Origin: a virus
Taxonomy: Duplodnaviria > Heunggongvirae > Uroviricota > Caudoviricetes
Reading direction: 5' to 3' (one strand)
IMG/VR virus record: IMGVR_UViG_2541047954_000002
Location: 1 to 43,165 of that record
DNA length: 43,165 bases
Positions 3,147 through 38,003 of this stretch are shown here, in pieces. Position numbers and translations under genes: made by a program. The notes beneath the pieces are model-generated. The model had not been told where the DNA came from. It made no database searches and saw only the letters and a program-made list of their open reading frames with translations. Position 1 is the first letter of the stretch. Each line of letters starts with the position of its first letter.

Positions 3147-3470
3147 TTATTCATTGCCGATATTCACCTTTATCGCGAACACCTTTACCGGTTTATCGCC
3201 GAAGTGCGGATGTGTGATTGTCTTGATTTCATATCCGTCATACGGAACATCAATTCTACGGCTGGAATCGTCGCGCTTCGGATATCCCTTTGTGATAATC
3301 AGGCGATCATACTCCCGGAACATAATTCGCTTATTCCAGTAGTCATTACACAGGCGATACTCTTCCGTTTTCTCTCTGCGAATCATGGCATCGAAGTATT
3401 CACCTTTAACGGCAAGTTGTAGGTTAGCCAAGGTTAACCTCCTGCGGCGGTTCTGCTGCAAAATACGCAA
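3147..3470 (-). CDS. Hypothetical protein, 107 aa (start uncertain)
   Basis: Intact ORF in the early leftward operon; no confident family assignment. Confidence 0.4.
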   Translation of the reverse strand: MRILQQNRRRRLTLANLQLAVKGEYFDAMIRREKTEEYRLCNDYWNKRIMFREYDRLIITKGYPKRDDSSRRIDVPYDGYEIKTITHPHFGDKPVKVFAIKVNIGNE

Positions 3471-9398: not shown

Positions 9399-9439
9399 CT
9401 GTTGTTTATGCCAAAAATAAAGGACGATTATGCGACCTC
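9399..9439. repeat. Copy 2 of the 41-bp direct repeat (degenerate hairpin)
   Basis: Same 26-bp core as copy 1; lies between the stop of the 9428..10051 gene and the start of the 8894..9364 gene. Confidence 0.85.
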
Positions 9440-10051
9440 GGAAGGAAGTCCAATCATCTTATTCAAATCTTCTACCCGTAAAGCAGGAAGTGCAGTACTT
9501 GCTTTATCTGCTTCTTTTGGTAGCAACTCTTTGCTTTCAGGCCAAACTTCAATAAGTCGCTTAACTGTTGTGACTGAGTTCAAAGCAGCCCATACATTTG
9601 ATTCGATATCCTTTTTCTTGGCTTCAAATTTTTGTTGCAATGCGCAGATTTCATCAAACCTTTTTGTTATTTCGTGTTCTGCGCTAAACATGCATTTATC
9701 TTTGGTCGGAGTAGGGAGCAATATATCTTCGCCGTTGCCGTCTTTCCCATATGAATACCAGCCAACCCTTCTGCCAGATACAGTCAGATAAATTGAAGTT
9801 GAACGGGCATCGCATGAGTAAAATGAACATCCCAGCTTTTCAAGTTCTTCACTTATAGCTACTAACTTGGATGATAACTGATCCACTTCCTCAGTTTTCT
9901 TTTTACCGCCAAACGCAATAACTCTGGCGTCAAGTGCAAGCTGGTTATTTAACTTTGTTACTTCTTCAAGTTCAGTGAAAACCCCGGACTTAATTAAAGC
10001 GTTACGAGCGATTTTCTCTTTCATTCTCGTAGTTAAGCGGATTGATGACAT
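9428..10051 (-). CDS. Hypothetical protein, 207 aa, first gene downstream of N in the pL operon
   Basis: ORF with GAGAGGAA SD before the ATG at 10051, 11 nt after the N stop; AT-rich; no family recognised. Confidence 0.5.
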   Translation of the reverse strand: MSSIRLTTRMKEKIARNALIKSGVFTELEEVTKLNNQLALDARVIAFGGKKKTEEVDQLSSKLVAISEELEKLGCSFYSCDARSTSIYLTVSGRRVGWYSYGKDGNGEDILLPTPTKDKCMFSAEHEITKRFDEICALQQKFEAKKKDIESNVWAALNSVTTVKRLIEVWPESKELLPKEADKASTALPALRVEDLNKMIGLPSEVA

Positions 10052-10062
10052 ATTAATTCCTC

Positions 10063-10389
10063 TCAAATAAGTGGTTTGCTGCCTAATTTCATTTTCTGGC
10101 GACCAACACAAGTCACACCCATTTCACTGCGTGGCTTGCTGTACCATGTGCGCTGATTCTTGCGCTCAATACGTTGCAGGTTGCTTTCAATCTGTTCGTG
10201 GTATTCAGCCAGTACCGTAAGGTCTATCGGATTCAGTGCGCTTTCTACTCGTGATTTCGGTTTGCGATTCAGCGAGAGAATAGGGCGGTTAACTGGTTTT
10301 GCGCTTACCCCAACCAACAGGGGATTTGCTGCTTTCCATTGAGCCTGTTTCTCTGCGCGACGTTCGCGGCGGCGTGTTTGTGCATCCAT
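10063..10389 (-). CDS. N: Antitermination protein N (lambda-type), 108 aa
   Basis: MDAQTRRRERRAEKQAQWKAANPLLVGVSAKPVNRPILSLNRKPKSRVESALNPIDLTVLAEYH... matches lambda N including the arginine-rich motif. Confidence 0.95.
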   Translation of the reverse strand: MDAQTRRRERRAEKQAQWKAANPLLVGVSAKPVNRPILSLNRKPKSRVESALNPIDLTVLAEYHEQIESNLQRIERKNQRTWYSKPRSEMGVTCVGRQKMKLGSKPLI

Positions 10390-10540
10390 CTGGATTCTCC
10401 TGTCAGTTAGCTTTGGTGGTGTGTGGGAGTCGTAGTCCTGAACGAAAACACCCCGCGATTGGCGCATTGGCAGCTAATCCGGATTCGCACTTCCGGCCAA
10501 TGCTTCGTTTCGTATCACACACCCCAAAGCCTTCTGCTTT

Positions 10541-10580
10541 GAATGCTGCCCTTCTTCAGGGCTTAATTTTTAAGAGCATC
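10541..10580 (-). promoter_or_regulatory. nutL (boxA GCTCTTAAAAATTAA + boxB GCCCTGAAGAAGGGC)
   Basis: Minus-strand sequence GATGCTCTTAAAAATTAAGCCCTGAAGAAGGGCAGCATTC matches remembered lambda nutL; located between pL and N. Confidence 0.85.
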
Positions 10581-10609
10581 ACCTTCATGGTGGTTAGTGC
10601 GTCCTGCTG

Positions 10610-10700
10610 ATGGCTTAAAATATACCTACAGGTAAAACTATTGTCTATACCTGCAGGTAAATAAAATTGGTGTGAGAGTTTACCTGTTTGAATTTTCAGG
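10610..10700 (-). promoter_or_regulatory. OL/pL region with TACCTNCAGGTA-type palindromic operators
   Basis: TACCTACAGGTAAA, TACCTGCAGGTAAA and TTACCTG...CAGGTAA palindromes upstream of nutL/N; the same motif recurs at OR. Confidence 0.6.
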
Positions 10701-10719
10701 TAATTAATTTTTTGGATTG

Positions 10720-10745
10720 ATATAAAAAAGCCCGCTTTGCGGGCT
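10720..10745 (-). terminator. Rho-independent terminator closing the cI operon
   Basis: Hairpin AGCCCGC-TTT-GCGGGCT followed on the minus strand by a U-run; 12 nt after the stop of the 10757..11071 gene. Confidence 0.6.
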
Positions 10746-10756
10746 GAAAGGAGATG

Positions 10757-11071
10757 TCAGAAGCTATTTGGATTGCTTGGCCATTGCGGCAATTTTGATT
10801 CTACCGGGGTGTGTTTGGGTTTGAGTCCGTTTAAGTAGTCAAGACGCTCAATGGCGCATTTATACATAGCAATCTGATCTGATGACATGTCGTCATATGA
10901 CATGCCTTTGAACTTCTTAATTATCGTTTCTGCCTCATGTATAAGATGCTTCTTCTTCATGAGTTCAGCTGTATGCTTAGAGCTTACAGGAGATAACTTT
11001 GCCCATATGAAGCAGATGATTACAACAGCGACCACTATACCTGGTATAAACATTTGCTGCTTTATCCTCAA
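10757..11071 (-). CDS. Small membrane protein (single N-terminal TM helix, 104 aa) co-transcribed downstream of cI
   Basis: Hydrophobic segment FIPGIVVAVVIICFIWAKL; start overlaps the cI stop; followed by a terminator; occupies the rexAB slot of lambda. Confidence 0.55.
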   Translation of the reverse strand: MRIKQQMFIPGIVVAVVIICFIWAKLSPVSSKHTAELMKKKHLIHEAETIIKKFKGMSYDDMSSDQIAMYKCAIERLDYLNGLKPKHTPVESKLPQWPSNPNSF

Positions 11072-11754
11072 AATTTTGGCAGATCGTCCTGGTCTACATA
11101 CCTAGTGTGTTTCACAATAGCTGAAACAAAATGCATTTTATCAACTTCTTCAACAGGAAGAGTGATTGGACGGTGATCGCTGTTTATACTACTAAACTGA
11201 TAGTCTCCGTCTCTTGTTTTGTTCATGATCTTTATCATGTTATGACCATCTTTGGTCCTTACAAAGACTTCATCACCTGGATGTACTGGCGTATTTGGTT
11301 CAATAACAACATATTCTCCTGACTGAATCCTTGGCCACATGCTGTCACCCTTAACCTTCAGACCGTAAGCATCTTTATCGCCACTGTAGATGCTTAACCA
11401 ACCGGATCTGAATTCAATCATATCCACTGAGCCATCAACTCCCAAAACGGCTTCACCAATTACCGGAACAAAACCCGCACGAACGTTACCCGCAAACTCA
11501 AGATGGTCTGCAGATCCAACTTTGCTATCTGCAAGCATGTCCATCCATCCGCGTGGGAGATTAAAAGATTTTTCAATTAGCTCCATCATATCGTCAGCAA
11601 TGCGTTTTTTTCCGCTTTTTCCTTCCGGATACAGCATTCTGGAAACGTATGATGGTTCCCTTTCTATTCGACGAGCCAACTCTGAGGCCTTTCCATTACA
11701 GAATCGGTCTCTTATCTCTATCAGCCTTAGTCGTCTTTGTTCGTATTTATCCAT
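11068..11754 (-). CDS. cI: Prophage CI repressor with C-terminal S24 (LexA-like) autopeptidase domain, 228 aa
   Basis: C-terminal KVKGDSMWPRIQSGEYVV motif; divergent from cro across an operator-containing intergenic region. Confidence 0.8.
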   Translation of the reverse strand: MDKYEQRRLRLIEIRDRFCNGKASELARRIEREPSYVSRMLYPEGKSGKKRIADDMMELIEKSFNLPRGWMDMLADSKVGSADHLEFAGNVRAGFVPVIGEAVLGVDGSVDMIEFRSGWLSIYSGDKDAYGLKVKGDSMWPRIQSGEYVVIEPNTPVHPGDEVFVRTKDGHNMIKIMNKTRDGDYQFSSINSDHRPITLPVEEVDKMHFVSAIVKHTRYVDQDDLPKF

Positions 11755-11769
11755 GATTTAATTCTATCT

Positions 11770-11835
11770 TTGATTACCTGCCGGTAAATAACCTATGGGT
11801 ATTGATTTGCTTTTTACCTACAGGTAAACTCATCT
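11770..11835. promoter_or_regulatory. OR region (pR/pRM) with TACCTNCAGGTA-type operators
   Basis: TTACCTGCCGGTAAA and TTACCTACAGGTAAA palindromes between divergent cI and cro; candidate pR -35 TTGATT / -10 TAAACT. Confidence 0.6.
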
Positions 11836-11862
11836 TATTCAACAACGGGAAGGAGATAGCAA

Positions 11863-12093
11863 ATGGAAGAACTCCGCTTGTATCTGAACTCCCTTTCACT
11901 GGAAGAGCAGAGAGAATTTGCCACCAAGTGCGGAACTTCTATCGGCTATTTGAGGAAAGCACTTAGCCGTAATCATGAATTGGGCGCAGCACTTTGTGTT
12001 CTGATTGAGAAGTTCAGCAATGGTGAAGTGACTCGCAAAGACCTTCATCCGGTTGATTGGGAAAGCATCTGGCCTGAATTAATGGCCGCTTAA
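11863..12093 (+). CDS. cro: Cro-like repressor, 76 aa
   Basis: Small ORF divergent from cI, immediately right of OR, followed by nutR. Confidence 0.6.
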   Translation: MEELRLYLNSLSLEEQREFATKCGTSIGYLRKALSRNHELGAALCVLIEKFSNGEVTRKDLHPVDWESIWPELMAA

Positions 12094-12109
12094 GTTATTA
12101 ACGCTCTTA

Positions 12110-12141
12110 CACATCCCCGCCCTGAAAAAGGGCATTACCAG
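12110..12141 (+). promoter_or_regulatory. nutR (boxA CGCTCTTACA + boxB GCCCTGAAAAAGGGC)
   Basis: CGCTCTTACACATCCCCGCCCTGAAAAAGGGC matches remembered lambda nutR; between cro and cII. Confidence 0.85.
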
Positions 12142-12209
12142 AAACAAATCTCTATGGTTTTGCGTTTCTTTGCGAAGCCAACTCTATCTAATAATTAAGG
12201 AAATTATCT

Positions 12210-12491
12210 ATGGGTACTATTGCAACTAAAAGCAAGAAAGCGGCTCGCATCGAGTCAGCCTTGCTGAACAAACTGGCACTGATGGGGCAGAAGACATTCG
12301 CTCGAGCAATGGGGGTTCCTGAATATCAGGTAAGCCGATGGAAGAATGGTTTCTTCTCGCAGGTAAGCATGATGCTGGCTGTTCTGGAATACGGAATCGA
12401 AGACGATGAAATGGCTGAGCTGACTAAGCGGCTTGCCAATTACCTGACAAAAGAAAAAGCCCCGAAGAACGGCGAATTCTTCGAGGCCTGA
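12210..12491 (+). CDS. cII: CII transcriptional activator, 93 aa
   Basis: ARIESALLNKLALMGQKTFARAMGV...SRWKNGFFSQVSMMLAVLEYGIEDDEMAEL parallels lambda CII. Confidence 0.85.
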   Translation: MGTIATKSKKAARIESALLNKLALMGQKTFARAMGVPEYQVSRWKNGFFSQVSMMLAVLEYGIEDDEMAELTKRLANYLTKEKAPKNGEFFEA

Positions 12492-12525
12492 TGTAGAAAG
12501 ACTGGAACAATCCACAGGAGTAATT

Positions 12526-12687
12526 ATGACAAAACGTCGTAAGAAATACCAGGAAAAAGAAGAGATTCGACACCCTGATTCACCTGAGGGATTAGTGGTA
12601 GCCGCAGCAAATAACAGGGCGTTCGCAGAGCGCCTTGTTGGTGTTTACAGACTAGCCAAAGCAGGAGTGAAACATGGGCGTCGTTAA
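12526..12687 (+). CDS. Small basic ORF, 53 aa
   Basis: Hand-found ORF with AGGAG SD 5 nt upstream; overlaps the start of the replication initiator gene. Confidence 0.35.
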   Translation: MTKRRKKYQEKEEIRHPDSPEGLVVAAANNRAFAERLVGVYRLAKAGVKHGRR

Positions 12688-13564
12688 ATTAGCTGATTAC
12701 AGGCATAACCCTGTACAACATCAGGAGGCATCCAGTATGGGGTATGTCTCTATACACCGCCAGTTTATGGACAGCAGGCTCTATAAGGACTCTCAGGCAG
12801 TACATCTTTGGCTTCACTTAATCCTCAAGGCTAATCACGAATCTACTGTCGTCAATACGGATATCGGTCCGATAACTGTTGATCGCGGTCAGATGATAAC
12901 TGGACGCCCGTCGCTGGTCAGAGAAACATTCATCCCCGACAACAAAGTTCGGAGCTTATTACGGACTTTTGAGTCGAAAGGGATGCTTAATATTTGCGCG
13001 ATGGGGAAGAAATTTAGCCTGTTTACAATCGTTAAATATGACGATTTTCAGTCAAAAAATTGTCCAACGGTTGTCCAACAGTTGTCCAACGCAAACACCA
13101 GTAATGGCGCGGCTCTCAGCGGAGATTGTCCAACGGTTGTCCAACAGTTGTCCATAAACAATAATATAAATAATATCTCTAATACTGACGTATTAGAGAG
13201 TGCCACAGCAGACAAAAAGTCTGACAAGAAAAAACCTTCCGTTAGCTGTCAGGATGTTGTCGATGCTTACCACGAAATCCTTCCTGAAGCTCCAAGAATC
13301 CGCGCACTGAATGACAAGCGTAAAAACCAGATCCGAACGTTCTGGCGCAAAGCCGGAGTGATAACCCGCCAGCTTGACGGGCATGGGTTCTCGATGCAGG
13401 ACTGGAGAAATTATTTGAGCTACGTAGGCGAAAATTGCCGATGGATGTTCGAAGAGCGCCCAAACCATCAACGCGGAACTGTCTGGCACAAAAAGGGATT
13501 TGATTTCCTGCTTAACGATAATACCTACCTGAAAGTTCGTGAGGGTGAACACGATGACCGATAA
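12674..13564 (+). CDS. Replication initiator (O-like / P22 gp18-like) with origin iterons inside the coding region
   Basis: Position between cII and the helicase; internal iterons encoding the duplicated peptide CPTVVQQLS; ATGA coupling to the helicase gene. Confidence 0.7.
   Translation: MGVVKLADYRHNPVQHQEASSMGYVSIHRQFMDSRLYKDSQAVHLWLHLILKANHESTVVNTDIGPITVDRGQMITGRPSLVRETFIPDNKVRSLLRTFESKGMLNICAMGKKFSLFTIVKYDDFQSKNCPTVVQQLSNANTSNGAALSGDCPTVVQQLSINNNINNISNTDVLESATADKKSDKKKPSVSCQDVVDAYHEILPEAPRIRALNDKRKNQIRTFWRKAGVITRQLDGHGFSMQDWRNYLSYVGENCRWMFEERPNHQRGTVWHKKGFDFLLNDNTYLKVREGEHDDR
13055..13165. repeat. Replication origin iterons: ~6 copies of TTGTCCAAC in two groups, followed by an AT-rich tract
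   Basis: TGTCCAACGGTTGTCCAACAGTTGTCCAACG and GATTGTCCAACGGTTGTCCAACAGTTGTCCATAAACAATAATATAAATAATATC, read directly. Confidence 0.75.
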
Positions 13565-33184: not shown

Positions 33185-34486
33185 ATGGCTACTTGGCAAC
33201 AAGGAATCAACTCAGGCGGCTTTCTTGCTGGTATCGGTGGGCAAAACTCAAATGCGCCAAAGGCAAGTGATGTAAGTGAGGCGTTGGCCTATATTCGCCA
33301 GAACAACGAAATGGAGCGCTCAGGTCGCAATAACATCGGCCTTCAGGCGTTGCAGGGTCTTGGTAGTGTCGCTCAAGCATATCAAGCCGCAAAGCAACAG
33401 GAAGCGGATGCTGCATTCCAAAAAGAATATGCGGCAGCCATCCAGTCCGGCGATCGACAGCAGGTTCGAAATCTGATGACCAAATATCCTGGTCAATTAG
33501 AGAAGATTCAGTCTGGTATGAAGTGGGCAGACGAAGACCAGCGCAATTCCATCGGTACCTTAGCGGCTGGCGCACGCCTTGCGTCATCGTCTCCAGAAGC
33601 AATGCAATCATGGCTGCAAAACAACGCCAAGGAACTGACTCGCGTCGGTGTTGACCCTAATAACGTTGCTCAGATGTATCAGCAGAATCCTTCAGGATTT
33701 GGTGAGTTTGTTGATCACCTTGGAATGGCTGCTCTTGGTCCGATTGATTACTTCAATGTTCAGGACAAGATGGCTGGTCGTGAGATTGACCGAGGCAGGC
33801 TGGCAGAGACAATCCGCAGCAATCAGGCAGGAGAAGCACTAACAGCTCGAGGTCAGGACATCCAGATACGTGGACAGAACATCAGCGCACAGAATGCTGC
33901 TCTTTCCCGAGAAATACAAAGAGCAGAATTACAAGAAAAGGCTCTGGACAGACAGATAGCCAGAGAAAGCAATCAGTTAAAGCTTGAAGAGCTAAAACAG
34001 AAACAGGCAGATGTTCGGCAAAAGGCTGACATAGCCCGCGCTGACAGGCAGGCCGCCGCTCAGGGTGCAGTTGATACGTTCAGCACCGCGCTTGATTCTC
34101 TCAACGAGATAGAGCAAAGCCCCGGCCTTTCAAAAGCAGTAGGAATTCGCTCAGCGTTTCCGACAGTTCCTGGCTCTGATGCGGCTAACTTTGAAGCAAG
34201 GCTCGACACCTTTAAAGCTCAAACATTCCTTCCTATGGTGCAGTCCCTGAAGGGTATGGGCGCTCTTTCAGATGCAGAGGGTAAAAAATTATCCGATGCG
34301 GTTGGTGCCCTAAGCCCCAAAATGAGTGAAAAGGCTTTTCGTGACTCTATCGGAAAGATTAGAAATCAGCTTGAAAGCAAGTTGAGCACTGTTAAAAAAC
34401 AGTTTGATTATCAGGAGCCGGTGCAGAATATGCCAGGGCAACAATCTACTACTGGCAGTAACTTTTCTTCGCTATGGGGTGATTAA
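33185..34486 (+). CDS. Ejection (DNA-transfer) protein, gp20-like, 433 aa
   Basis: Position and size in the P22-like order; Ala/Gln-rich. Confidence 0.7.
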   Translation: MATWQQGINSGGFLAGIGGQNSNAPKASDVSEALAYIRQNNEMERSGRNNIGLQALQGLGSVAQAYQAAKQQEADAAFQKEYAAAIQSGDRQQVRNLMTKYPGQLEKIQSGMKWADEDQRNSIGTLAAGARLASSSPEAMQSWLQNNAKELTRVGVDPNNVAQMYQQNPSGFGEFVDHLGMAALGPIDYFNVQDKMAGREIDRGRLAETIRSNQAGEALTARGQDIQIRGQNISAQNAALSREIQRAELQEKALDRQIARESNQLKLEELKQKQADVRQKADIARADRQAAAQGAVDTFSTALDSLNEIEQSPGLSKAVGIRSAFPTVPGSDAANFEARLDTFKAQTFLPMVQSLKGMGALSDAEGKKLSDAVGALSPKMSEKAFRDSIGKIRNQLESKLSTVKKQFDYQEPVQNMPGQQSTTGSNFSSLWGD

Positions 34487-36483
34487 TGGCTAAAGCATGG
34501 AAAGATGTTATCGCCTCTCCACAGTATCAGGCGTTAGCACCAGAACAAAAAGCGCAGGCTCAGGAGCAATACTTCAATGAAGTCGTTGCCCCGCAAGCCG
34601 GAGAAAATGCAGAGCAGGCTAAGCAAGCTTTCTATGCTGCCTATCCATTGCCATCTGTGCAGCCAGTGGAGACACAACAACCAGTATCACAGCAACAACC
34701 ACAGCAAAGTGGATTTATGTCGGATCTTGGTGAAGCCGTGAAAGAAACTGGTCGCGGACTGGTGCAGGCTGGCGTGAACGTGGCAAACATACCTGCATCA
34801 GTTGCCGATGCTGTAACAAGCGCGGCGGCATGGGCTGGCGGTAAACTCGGCATTGGCGATGGTACATATCAACCAGCGCCACGAGTAACAACGCAGGGGT
34901 TAGAGCAGGACTTTGGCCTTCAGCAAGGCGCGCTCACTCCACAAACGACAGAGGGAAGGGTATTTGCTGAAGCATTGCCTTACCTCACTCCTGCTGGCGT
35001 TGAGAGAGCGGCAGCACAGGCACCAACACTTGCTGGTCGAATTGCTCAGGGGGCAACTCGCCTTCTAGCAGAAAACGCAGTTGGATCACTTGCTGCAAAT
35101 AGTGCGAAAGATGATGCGGAAGCACTCGCCATCGATTTAGGCGTTGGCGTTCTGGCTGGCGGTGCTATTAACGCTGCCGGACGTGGATTAGGTGCTGCTT
35201 ATCGTGGCGTTCGTGGTGCTATTGCGCCAGAAGCGCAGCAGGCTATCAGATTTGCAGAGCGTGAAGGAGTTCCTCTGCACACCACAGACCTGTTACAGCC
35301 TACTTCCCGCGTCGGAAAAATGGCGCAAACGACAGCAGAAAATATCCCCCTGGCTGGCACAAGCGGAATGAGAGCAACGCAACAGGAAGCGAGAAGCCAG
35401 TTGGTTCAGAGATTTGCTGATAAATTCGGTGAGTATGATCCAGCGGTTGTTATTGACAGCCTTAAAGCGAAAACATCAGGAATTCGTCGTGCCGCCGGTA
35501 ATCGACTGGAGCAGGTTCAGAATGCTATGGCGGGAATAAACATTCAGCCTGCAAGAGCAATTCAGCAGATTGATACAGAAATATCTAACCTGCAGAAGCT
35601 TGGTAAGGTTGCTGATAACGAGACTATTTCAAAACTTCAGTCCTATCGTGATGAGCTTGTTCGCAATGCTGGTCCTGATGGTCCGGTAAATCTGGATTTG
35701 AAGCAATTAAGCGATCTGCGCAGCCAGTTCAGAATGGATGTGAAGGGTGAGCGACCAGTGTTACCAAACCGTTCCGATGCTGCCATTCAGCGCGTTTACA
35801 AGGCAATGACCGACGATATCAATGGTGCCATTGGTCAGAATCTTGGCAACGATACTCTCCGTAAATATCAGCAGGCCAATGCCGTCTACGCTGACGAAGC
35901 GGCGAAACTAAAGAATACCATGCTGAAGAATGTTCTCATGAAAGGCGACCTGACGCCGGAAGTTGTCAACAACATGCTATTCAGCAAGAACAAATCGGAA
36001 ATTAAGACGCTGTATAACTCAGTTGGTCGTGTTGGCAGGGCGCAAATGCGCAATGGCATCATTGGAAAGGCGATGGAGAAATCAGGTGGTTCCCCTGATC
36101 AGTTCCTTCGACAGCTTAACATCCTGCAAAACCAGACTGGCATCACATTTAAGGGGCAGGACGCTGCTTATCTGAAAGGATTGAAAAACTACCTGCAATC
36201 CACGCAGCAGGCTGCAAAAGCGGCAGTAACAACACCAACAGGGCAGCAAACCATCCCGTTCATTATCGGGTATGGGACAGCAATGAACCCGGCGACAACT
36301 GGCGCAGCGGTAAGCTACGGACTTCTTACTCGCGCCTATGAGAGCGAACCATTCAGAAATGCAATGCTCCGAATGGCAAACACACCACGCGGATCGACAG
36401 CGTTTGAGAAAGCCATGCAGCAAGCGCAAAAAGCGATTAATGCACTGACGCAGGGTGCTAAGTCTGATTCGTTGTCAGAATAG
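34486..36483 (+). CDS. Ejection (DNA-transfer) protein, gp16-like, 665 aa
   Basis: Position and size in the P22-like order. Confidence 0.7.
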   Translation: MAKAWKDVIASPQYQALAPEQKAQAQEQYFNEVVAPQAGENAEQAKQAFYAAYPLPSVQPVETQQPVSQQQPQQSGFMSDLGEAVKETGRGLVQAGVNVANIPASVADAVTSAAAWAGGKLGIGDGTYQPAPRVTTQGLEQDFGLQQGALTPQTTEGRVFAEALPYLTPAGVERAAAQAPTLAGRIAQGATRLLAENAVGSLAANSAKDDAEALAIDLGVGVLAGGAINAAGRGLGAAYRGVRGAIAPEAQQAIRFAEREGVPLHTTDLLQPTSRVGKMAQTTAENIPLAGTSGMRATQQEARSQLVQRFADKFGEYDPAVVIDSLKAKTSGIRRAAGNRLEQVQNAMAGINIQPARAIQQIDTEISNLQKLGKVADNETISKLQSYRDELVRNAGPDGPVNLDLKQLSDLRSQFRMDVKGERPVLPNRSDAAIQRVYKAMTDDINGAIGQNLGNDTLRKYQQANAVYADEAAKLKNTMLKNVLMKGDLTPEVVNNMLFSKNKSEIKTLYNSVGRVGRAQMRNGIIGKAMEKSGGSPDQFLRQLNILQNQTGITFKGQDAAYLKGLKNYLQSTQQAAKAAVTTPTGQQTIPFIIGYGTAMNPATTGAAVSYGLLTRAYESEPFRNAMLRMANTPRGSTAFEKAMQQAQKAINALTQGAKSDSLSE

Positions 36484-36573: not shown

Positions 36574-37059
36574 TTATCTGATGTTACTGCTACTGTTGCA
36601 TGTTACCGCGTTTCCAAATCCTGAATTGCAGTTTGTATATGTGTCAACGCGTGTTGGGTAAGGTTGAGTTATAACAGGCTGGCGCGCTTTTTGCTCGATC
36701 GCTTGCATTGTGTTTACAGCCTGATAATTCAATAAAGCCTGCTGGAATGCTTGGCTTTGTGCTATTTGTTGGGCTTGTTCTTGGCTTTGTAATTGAACAT
36801 AAAGATTCTGAAGCTCAAGTCTTGCCTGTGCGTCACTTATCTTGCCTTCATCGACACCTTGCCCGAGCATCTTTGCAGCAAGGACATACAGCTTAGGTGT
36901 TGGTGCTGATGCCATGCGTGAGTCGTTCTTCACACTGGCATCAAGGCAATTAGCCATATCGCTAAGCTTTTGATAGCGTTGTTCGCAACTTGCTTGATAG
37001 TCACTTACTTTTGCGCACCCAGCCAGCAGAAGCGGGATAATTAACAGTGATTTTTTCAT
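36574..37059 (-). CDS. Lipoprotein (signal peptide MKKSLLIIPLLLAGC), 161 aa, opposite strand to the late operon
   Basis: Lipobox LLAGC; strong AAGGAGAG SD; in the sieA/immI slot between gp16 and the tailspike. Confidence 0.7.
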   Translation of the reverse strand: MKKSLLIIPLLLAGCAKVSDYQASCEQRYQKLSDMANCLDASVKNDSRMASAPTPKLYVLAAKMLGQGVDEGKISDAQARLELQNLYVQLQSQEQAQQIAQSQAFQQALLNYQAVNTMQAIEQKARQPVITQPYPTRVDTYTNCNSGFGNAVTCNSSSNIR

Positions 37060-37734: not shown

Positions 37735-37767
37735 CAAAAATTAACCCACCTTCAGGTGGGTTTTTTG
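37735..37767. terminator. Bidirectional terminator-like hairpin overlapping the mnt stop codon
   Basis: ACCCACC-TTCA-GGTGGGT hairpin flanked by a T-run on the plus strand and by AATTTTTG on the minus strand. Confidence 0.5.
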
Positions 37768-38003
37768 TACAAATCCTTCAGCGTATCAAACACCATCTTC
37801 TTAACAAGTTCAGACTGCTCATCAGCGATGCGTTCCGCATCGTCTCGATAGCCTGAAATTTTGGATGGCTTTGATACGGCATCAGTCACTATCTGAACTA
37901 ATTCTGAATTAAGAGAGCGGCCATTGGATTTGGCTCGCTGTTTTAGTTTTTCCTTTAATTCGTAAGGTAGCCGCAGATTAAATTGCGGGTCATCTCTTCC
38001 CAT
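37752..38003 (-). CDS. mnt: Mnt repressor (ribbon-helix-helix), 83 aa
   Basis: DDPQFNLRLPYELKEKLKQRAKSNGRSLNSELVQIVTDAVSKPSKISGYRDDAERIADEQSELVKKMVFDTLKDLYKK closely matches remembered P22 Mnt. Confidence 0.9.
   Translation of the reverse strand: MGRDDPQFNLRLPYELKEKLKQRAKSNGRSLNSELVQIVTDAVSKPSKISGYRDDAERIADEQSELVKKMVFDTLKDLYKKPT

Follow-up and report, generated by a model that had tools for sequence, protein, structure and literature searches.

Anti-phage functions are known to be encoded by prophage genes that are expressed alongside the repressor, with RexAB, BstA, SieA and gp15 as examples, and few of the small membrane examples of prophage defence are understood mechanistically. RexB of lambda has four transmembrane (TM) helices and needs RexA, and the lactococcal protein Sie2009 blocks DNA entry. 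The region downstream of cI is a known hotspot of mosaicism and houses defence genes, among them rexAB and BstA (PMC8585504), SieA is an inner-membrane superinfection exclusion protein whose gene adjoins gene 16 (PMC10883804), and gp15 of HK97 is a demonstrated inner-membrane superinfection exclusion protein (PMC3594210). Here we analysed a small open reading frame (ORF) that directly follows cI in the virus record IMGVR_UViG_2541047954_000002. The whole stretch (43,165 nucleotides (nt); hereafter the window) is a P22-like (CUS-3/Sf6-type) Escherichia coli prophage whose early region is of the lambda type, and the order around the finding is cII and cro (plus strand), OR, cI, the small ORF, a terminator, OL/PL and N (minus strand). 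We class the small gene, itself uncharacterised, with a known kind of prophage cargo. The reading that we favour, with a probability of about 45%, is that it may form the terminal cistron of the immunity operon and encode an inner-membrane exclusion or defence protein that is expressed in the lysogen.

Could the small ORF be a chance reading frame between cI and the terminator, with no functional gene behind it? The standard NCBI annotation might be taken that way: in most of the 52 complete E. coli genomes that carry the locus (see below), PGAP leaves this conserved gene uncalled and lists the S24 peptidase alone under the match, and once it made a truncated call of 67 amino acids (aa; L003, 3058..3261). 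The comparative data say otherwise. The profile phrog_10450 (PHROGs, function not assigned) matched residues 7–104 of the ORF over its positions 1–98 of 98 (E = 1.3e-55). The ORF was intact in all alleles, that is in 28/28 IMG/VR loci, and its region was colinear and free of indels across the window and these 28 loci. The ratio of non-synonymous to synonymous polymorphism (pN/pS) was 0.18 in the frame of the ORF versus 9.2 and 1.09 in the other frames (0.10 for cI in the same allele comparison), and 12 of the 18 variable sites fell at third codon positions. As purifying selection is thus specific to the reading frame, the ORF is not a chance one. Homologues with 30–42% identity also keep the ribosome-binding site (RBS) and the start in other genomic contexts, and the AlphaFold2 (AF2) model is confident. 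These data effectively refute a chance ORF, an explanation that we regard as extremely improbable, and the gene is almost certainly real.

The preliminary description had placed a 104-aa ORF at the cI stop codon. That ORF is present, and found mechanically it spans 10757..11071 (−), starting from a TTG that overlaps the cI stop (TTGA), but translation most likely begins at the ATG at 11053..11051, which gives a product of 98 aa. Several observations lead us to this choice: phrog_10450 aligns to residues 7–104 across its full length (98/98), all homologues begin with M/V-[YFW]-I-[PS], the codon is ATG or GTG across the alleles and hence always a start codon, the diverged locus L004 has an in-frame stop one codon upstream of the same start, and the subfamily linked to gene 16 (described below) has a strong Shine–Dalgarno (SD) sequence, AAGGAGG, just before the same position. 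For these reasons the TTG start and the 104-aa product were rejected. A start at TTG would add a basic n-region, MRIKQQ, and reverse the predicted topology of the protein. At the junction with cI, an SD-like GAGGA (11069..11065) that shares nucleotides with the cI stop lies 11 nt before the ATG of the small gene, and the junction showed no variation in 29 alleles. We looked for a second copy of the ORF in the window and found none.

We then compared the fate of the small gene with that of its cI. The cI–ORF stretch is 96.8% identical at the nucleotide level to phage mEp043, so that the immunity module is of the mEp043 type, and in the phage collection the stretch is confined to the mEp043 lineage (3 records). 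It occurs in single copy in 52 of 5,426 complete E. coli genomes, and in 52/52 of these the small ORF accompanies this cI with a full-length match and is never separated from it; ∼470 other E. coli genomes share just 50–66 nt left of OL. Because the two are never separated, the ORF in the cI slot is part of the immunity cassette, a fixed component of the module and not an independent insertion. Four diverged loci (L004, L006, L071 and L072) retain the arrangement cII–cro–cI followed by the ORF, with gaps of 3–5 nt. Between the window and L004/L006, cI is 84% identical and the small ORF 40–41%. In the comparison of L006 with L071, cI was 98% identical, with a non-synonymous divergence (dN) of 0.009 and a ratio of non-synonymous to synonymous divergence (ω) of 0.024, versus 72% identity, a dN of 0.158 and an ω of 0.26 for the ORF. 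From these dN and ω values, the small gene changes its amino acids ∼17 times faster than cI and is still constrained. In one IMG/VR prophage (L013, ∼3300..3465) the N-terminal part of cI is disrupted and a 173-aa C-terminal ORF remains, and the small ORF downstream of it and cro are both intact. The divergence of cI in L013 was considered as a new immunity type and this was rejected, as the N-terminal part is simply disrupted.

The signals around the two genes (Table 1) fit a bicistronic immunity transcript, with cI and the ORF, of the kind made from PRM in lambda. Six nucleotides separate the −10 element of the PRM-like promoter from the cI ATG, so that the cI mRNA would lack a leader, as it does in lambda. 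A repeat search revealed the OR operators TACCTGCCGGTAAAT at 11775–11791 and TACCTACAGGTAAAC at 11815–11831, and operators of the TACCTGCAGGTA type bracket the cI–ORF unit on both sides. Further upstream, a PRE-like element shows a layout that we take to equal that of lambda PRE, and we infer that it would transcribe cI and the small ORF while lysogeny is established. No terminator was found between cI and the small ORF. Downstream of the ORF, a hairpin with a 7-bp stem (six GC pairs), an AAA loop and a T6 tract (−12.6 kcal/mol, z = −2.65) begins 11 nt past the stop codon (TGA, 10759..10757), just before the OL operators and PL; by analogy it is the counterpart of lambda t-imm. OL/PL forms the left border of the immunity module, a mosaic boundary in the genome comparison. 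The preliminary description had proposed a strong terminator within 12 nt of the ORF, which is borne out, and co-transcription with the repressor, for which the PRM-like promoter, the uninterrupted path from cI and the bracketing operators all speak. Judged from these sequence features, the small gene is very likely expressed together with cI. A scan of 9800–12800 against Rfam gave sub-threshold matches only, and these were driven by the terminator. At the diverged locus L006 (5294..5330) the ORF is followed by no GC-rich hairpin terminator; its stop codon is directly followed by operator-like TACC...GGTA repeats, and L004 has a clear terminator instead.

The single N-terminal TM helix of the preliminary description was also recovered. 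The protein contains one hydrophobic segment, at its extreme N-terminus (about residues 1–19; mean Kyte–Doolittle value 2.84 versus 0.38 for the next best segment), and no lipobox, and it is predicted with high confidence to sit in the inner membrane. In 13/13 family members there is no lysine or arginine before the TM segment and there are one to four in the 15 residues that follow. Under the positive-inside rule an N-out/C-in topology is predicted, and we regard it as probable. In the AF2 model (pLDDT 84, pTM 0.62) a long helix (residues 5–47) is followed by a second helix (58–76) that packs back on it and by an extended tail that holds the WP motif. Members with 30–42% identity retain the N-terminal hydrophobic helix and the motifs LI.EA, SW..M, Y.CA.ERL and WP, and residues M56, C66, A67 and L71 are invariant in the family.

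An exhaustive HMMER search of 1.84 billion representatives returned 10 clusters only, none of them chromosomal (non-phage). A profile search returned 26 proteins, all unnamed, and those labelled with a source came from E. coli, E. fergusonii or Salmonella. The family is small, fast-evolving and restricted to enterobacterial phages. Searches of Pfam, NCBIfam and PDB sequences with the small protein gave no meaningful match, no structural (fold) relative was detectable, and in the literature on mEp043, other mEp phages and recent P22-like exclusion work we found no characterisation of the gene.

Members of the family were found in two places only: after cI, and beside gene 16. Both are positions where lambdoid and P22-like phages hold cargo for expression in the lysogen. 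In 28 loci (phage N7 and 27 others) a member is convergent with the ejection gene 16 and lies 1–17 nt from its stop codon, on the mnt/arc/ant side. This is the geometry of sieA in P22, where the gap to gene 16 is 22 nt, and neither a SieA homologue nor the SieA motif was found in these loci by tblastn and hidden Markov model searches. The two subfamilies are ∼37% identical to each other, and one P22-like prophage (IMG/VR contig 2563366933_000009) has both paralogues, L018 after cI and L057 beside gene 16. Among the gene-16-linked loci L038–L062, upstream homology ends ∼20 nt before the ORF start, just past the AAGGAGG RBS, and the subfamily as a whole occurs behind at least five different upstream contexts. 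As only the RBS and the ORF are conserved while the upstream sequence varies, the two together behave in this slot as a very tight, mobile unit of cargo that relies on transcription from upstream. A moron in the Juhala/Hendrix sense is an autonomous unit, with a promoter and a terminator of its own, placed between genes of a phage operon; the small gene has a terminator in the window, and neither slot shows an evident promoter for the gene itself. Phage N7 (L002, 2869..2903) has an 11-bp inverted repeat, GCTGCATGATT ... AATCATGCAGC, directly before the RBS of the homologue; the repeat could act as an operator or form an RNA structure, and it does not qualify as a canonical terminator.

Taken as a mechanism, the favoured reading would run as follows. 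Transcription from PRM and PRE through cI and the ORF to the terminator would supply the small protein whenever repressor is made. The extreme N-terminus would anchor the 98-aa single-pass protein in the inner membrane, and a helical hairpin of ∼75 residues with the motifs LI.EA, SW..M, Y.CA.ERL and WP would face the cytoplasm. There the protein would protect the lysogen against incoming phages, preferably by blocking genome delivery through binding to the membrane conduit of the incoming phage or to a host inner-membrane entry factor. This last step is modelled on what HK97 gp15 and P22 SieA are thought to do.

How well does this account hold? The preliminary description had named the gene a candidate exclusion or abortive-infection determinant because of its position. 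That candidacy is strengthened because the family fills two slots, replaces sieA and evolves much faster than cI; the interpretation is supported in part. Several observations weigh against it. No PADLOC-DB v2 family matched the small protein at E ≤ 1, and the protein shows no similarity to any known exclusion or defence protein, with hhalign probabilities below 2% against RexB, SieA and gp15. The family is rare: it is present in ∼1% of complete E. coli genomes, and its cI-slot type occurs in 1 of 185,579 species-representative genomes (an Escherichia). Position alone is weak evidence, as both slots hold non-defence cargo in other phages, and the close spacing to gene 16 could reflect nothing more than physical linkage. 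As the overall ω of the ORF is below 1, its fast evolution could reflect relaxed constraint and not an arms race. Finally, the predicted cytoplasmic domain could not directly touch periplasmic ejection proteins. We put an anti-phage function of some kind at even odds, and a specific block of phage entry is a tentative and somewhat doubtful proposal.

Other functions would also be compatible with a small membrane protein of this kind. An abortive-infection (Abi) effector would act as a single-protein analogue of RexAB, its cytoplasmic domain sensing a phage product and oligomerising so that the membrane is depolarised. The gene sits in the exact position of rexAB and BstA within the immunity operon (PMC8585504), and the predicted membrane anchor and cytoplasmic domain and the rapid evolution would suit such a protein. 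We nevertheless find this quite unlikely, since the protein has a single TM helix and no sensor partner gene, resembles neither RexB nor any PADLOC Abi model, and belongs to a family whose other slot is that of the entry blocker SieA and not of an Abi system.

The product could instead be a lysogenic-conversion factor, a small inner-membrane regulator of a host transporter, sensor kinase or protease that alters fitness. AcrZ, MgrB and SgrT are small membrane regulators of the same size class and with the same N-terminal-anchor architecture; the resemblance to them, the possibility of non-defence cargo in both slots and the overall purifying selection are all in favour of this idea. We consider it unlikely, as the family is confined to phages and prophages with no chromosomal homologue among the 1.84 billion representatives, replaces sieA precisely, and has a dN ∼17 times that of cI, a value more in keeping with conflict than with a conserved host target. 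A further function that would account for the absolute linkage to the cI lineage (52 genomes and four diverged loci, with junctions of 3–14 nt) is that of a membrane-tethered regulator of the lysis–lysogeny switch, tuning the stability of cI or cII or induction, for example via FtsH/HflKC or RecA-dependent cleavage; its predicted expression from both PRE and PRM would suit this role. It is very improbable in view of the members that live away from cI, beside gene 16 and behind at least five upstream contexts, of the prophage that holds both copies, and of the unequal conservation of cI (84–98%) and the ORF (35–72%), unlike what co-evolving partners would show. A lysogen-made exclusion or defence protein thus remains the reading that we prefer.

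Two other regions of the window contain further ORFs. In the PL operon, N is followed directly by a 227-aa ORF (9428..10111, −) with no PADLOC or NCBIfam match; in related prophages it is sieB that adjoins N at this place. The window copy of the family lies after cI and not in the slot between genes 16 and 9. That gene-16/tailspike slot, the sieA position, holds a lipoprotein-like ORF (36574..37059, −; lipobox MKKSLLIIPLLLAGC) that is convergent with gene 16 (34486..36483), and an Arc/Mnt-like ORF (37752..38003, −) lies beyond it. PADLOC and NCBIfam searches gave no meaningful match here. The lipoprotein-like ORF is a second candidate for an envelope protein expressed in the lysogen.

Table 1. 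Coordinates of the small gene, of cI and N, and of the signals around them in the window
Feature	Position	Strand	Basis and remarks
Small gene, 98 aa + stop, phrog_10450	10757..11053	−	Profile, homologue alignment, frame-specific selection
Predicted N-terminal TM helix (about residues 3–20)	10994..11047	−	Hydropathy
cI–ORF junction	11054..11069	−	cI TGA 11070..11068, then 14 nt to the ORF ATG
cI repressor, 228 aa	11068..11754	−	Pfam Peptidase_S24, 1.4e-17; phrog_4; S24 self-cleavage domain
PRM-like promoter in OR region	11761..11831	−	−35 TTTACC 11788..11783, −10 TAGAAT 11766..11761, spacing TTTACC-16-TAGAAT (promoter scan, sequence)
PRE-like promoter	12203..12235	−	TTGC-N6-TTGC 12235..12222 within the start of cII; 13 nt on, GATAAT 12208..12203
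Intrinsic terminator ending the predicted immunity transcript	10723..10745	−	Stem AGCCCGC-AAA-GCGGGCT 10745..10729, then TTTTTT
OL operators and PL	10619..10705	−	Operators 10623–10639, 10648–10664, variant 10680–10705
PL promoter	10647..10619	−	TAGACA-17-TATATT; drives N
N gene (lambda N protein)	10066..10389	−	Pfam N36, 2.4e-26; driven by PL

The gene would make a cheap and clearly delimited test case: it is a single gene for 98 aa, it is carried by a cultivable phage, mEp043, and natural alleles with 35–98% identity as well as paralogues in two slots are available for comparison. If the protein excludes phages, it would represent a new exclusion family and help in studying how a block of DNA delivery across the inner membrane can be imposed from the cytoplasm.

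Finally, we asked how the small gene compares with the systems that it recalls. The slot is the one taken in lambda by rexA/rexB, between cI and OL/PL; as there, the gene would be read from PRM and PRE up to a terminator just before OL, and its product is predicted to be membrane-associated. In contrast to rexAB, which specifies a cytoplasmic sensor and a four-TM protein, only one ORF, encoding a single-TM protein, lies between cI and the terminator, so that there is no two-gene module of sensor and effector, and the spacer after cI is 14 nt versus >100 nt in lambda. The protein had no Rex match in Pfam at E ≤ 1 and an hhalign probability of 0.4% against lambda RexB, in agreement with the earlier statement that it is not rex-like. 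BstA is much larger than the small protein, and it is soluble and DNA-associated. The small protein has no PADLOC or Pfam match. What the two share is a place immediately downstream of the repressor in a P22-like or lambdoid prophage, presumably the repressor promoter, and a Rho-independent terminator (PMC8585504). The lactococcal Sie2009 and Ltp of Streptococcus thermophilus are likewise small, membrane-anchored and repressor-adjacent, and these two are made by the lysogen and block DNA entry. Their hosts are unrelated and they have no sequence similarity to the small protein; moreover, Ltp is a surface-exposed lipoprotein (PMC3952083), whereas the small protein has no lipobox and its domain is predicted to be cytoplasmic.

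Like SieA of P22, the small protein is predicted to be an inner-membrane protein made by the lysogen, it is confined to enterobacterial phages, and its family has members in the identical slot, convergent with gene 16, in P22-like phages without SieA. The SieA class (types A–C) comprises proteins of ∼160–200 aa with 3–4 predicted TM helices and the motif FxRYPxEAxxFNK. P22 SieA itself has 162–164 aa, three TM helices and this motif; the small protein has 98 aa and one TM helix, lacks the motif and reached an hhalign probability of 0.6%. On the predicted structure, the closest architecture is that of HK97 gp15, which is not a homologue. Both proteins have a TM helix at the extreme N-terminus, then basic residues and a short helical C-terminal domain, both are encoded by a small gene followed by its own terminator, and gp15 is expressed from the prophage. 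They differ in length (62 aa for gp15) and in setting, as the gp15 gene lies within the tail operon and has a promoter of its own. As a YebO-like moron, gp15 has chromosomal YebO relatives, whereas the family described here has no non-phage relatives; the small protein gave no YebO Pfam match, and an hhalign probability of 1.5% that spanned TM residues only. Homology to RexB, SieA or HK97 gp15 was therefore rejected, all hhalign probabilities being below 2%. The boldest reading, which we offer as a speculative and rather doubtful one, is that the family may be a new and portable single-protein superinfection-exclusion system, interchangeable with SieA in the gene-16 slot and with RexAB/BstA in the cI slot, that blocks genome delivery from the cytoplasmic face of the inner membrane by obstructing either the gp16-type conduit of P22-like phages or an entry factor of the host. 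If true, such interchange would show that both classic slots for lysogen-expressed genes draw on one pool of defence cargo.

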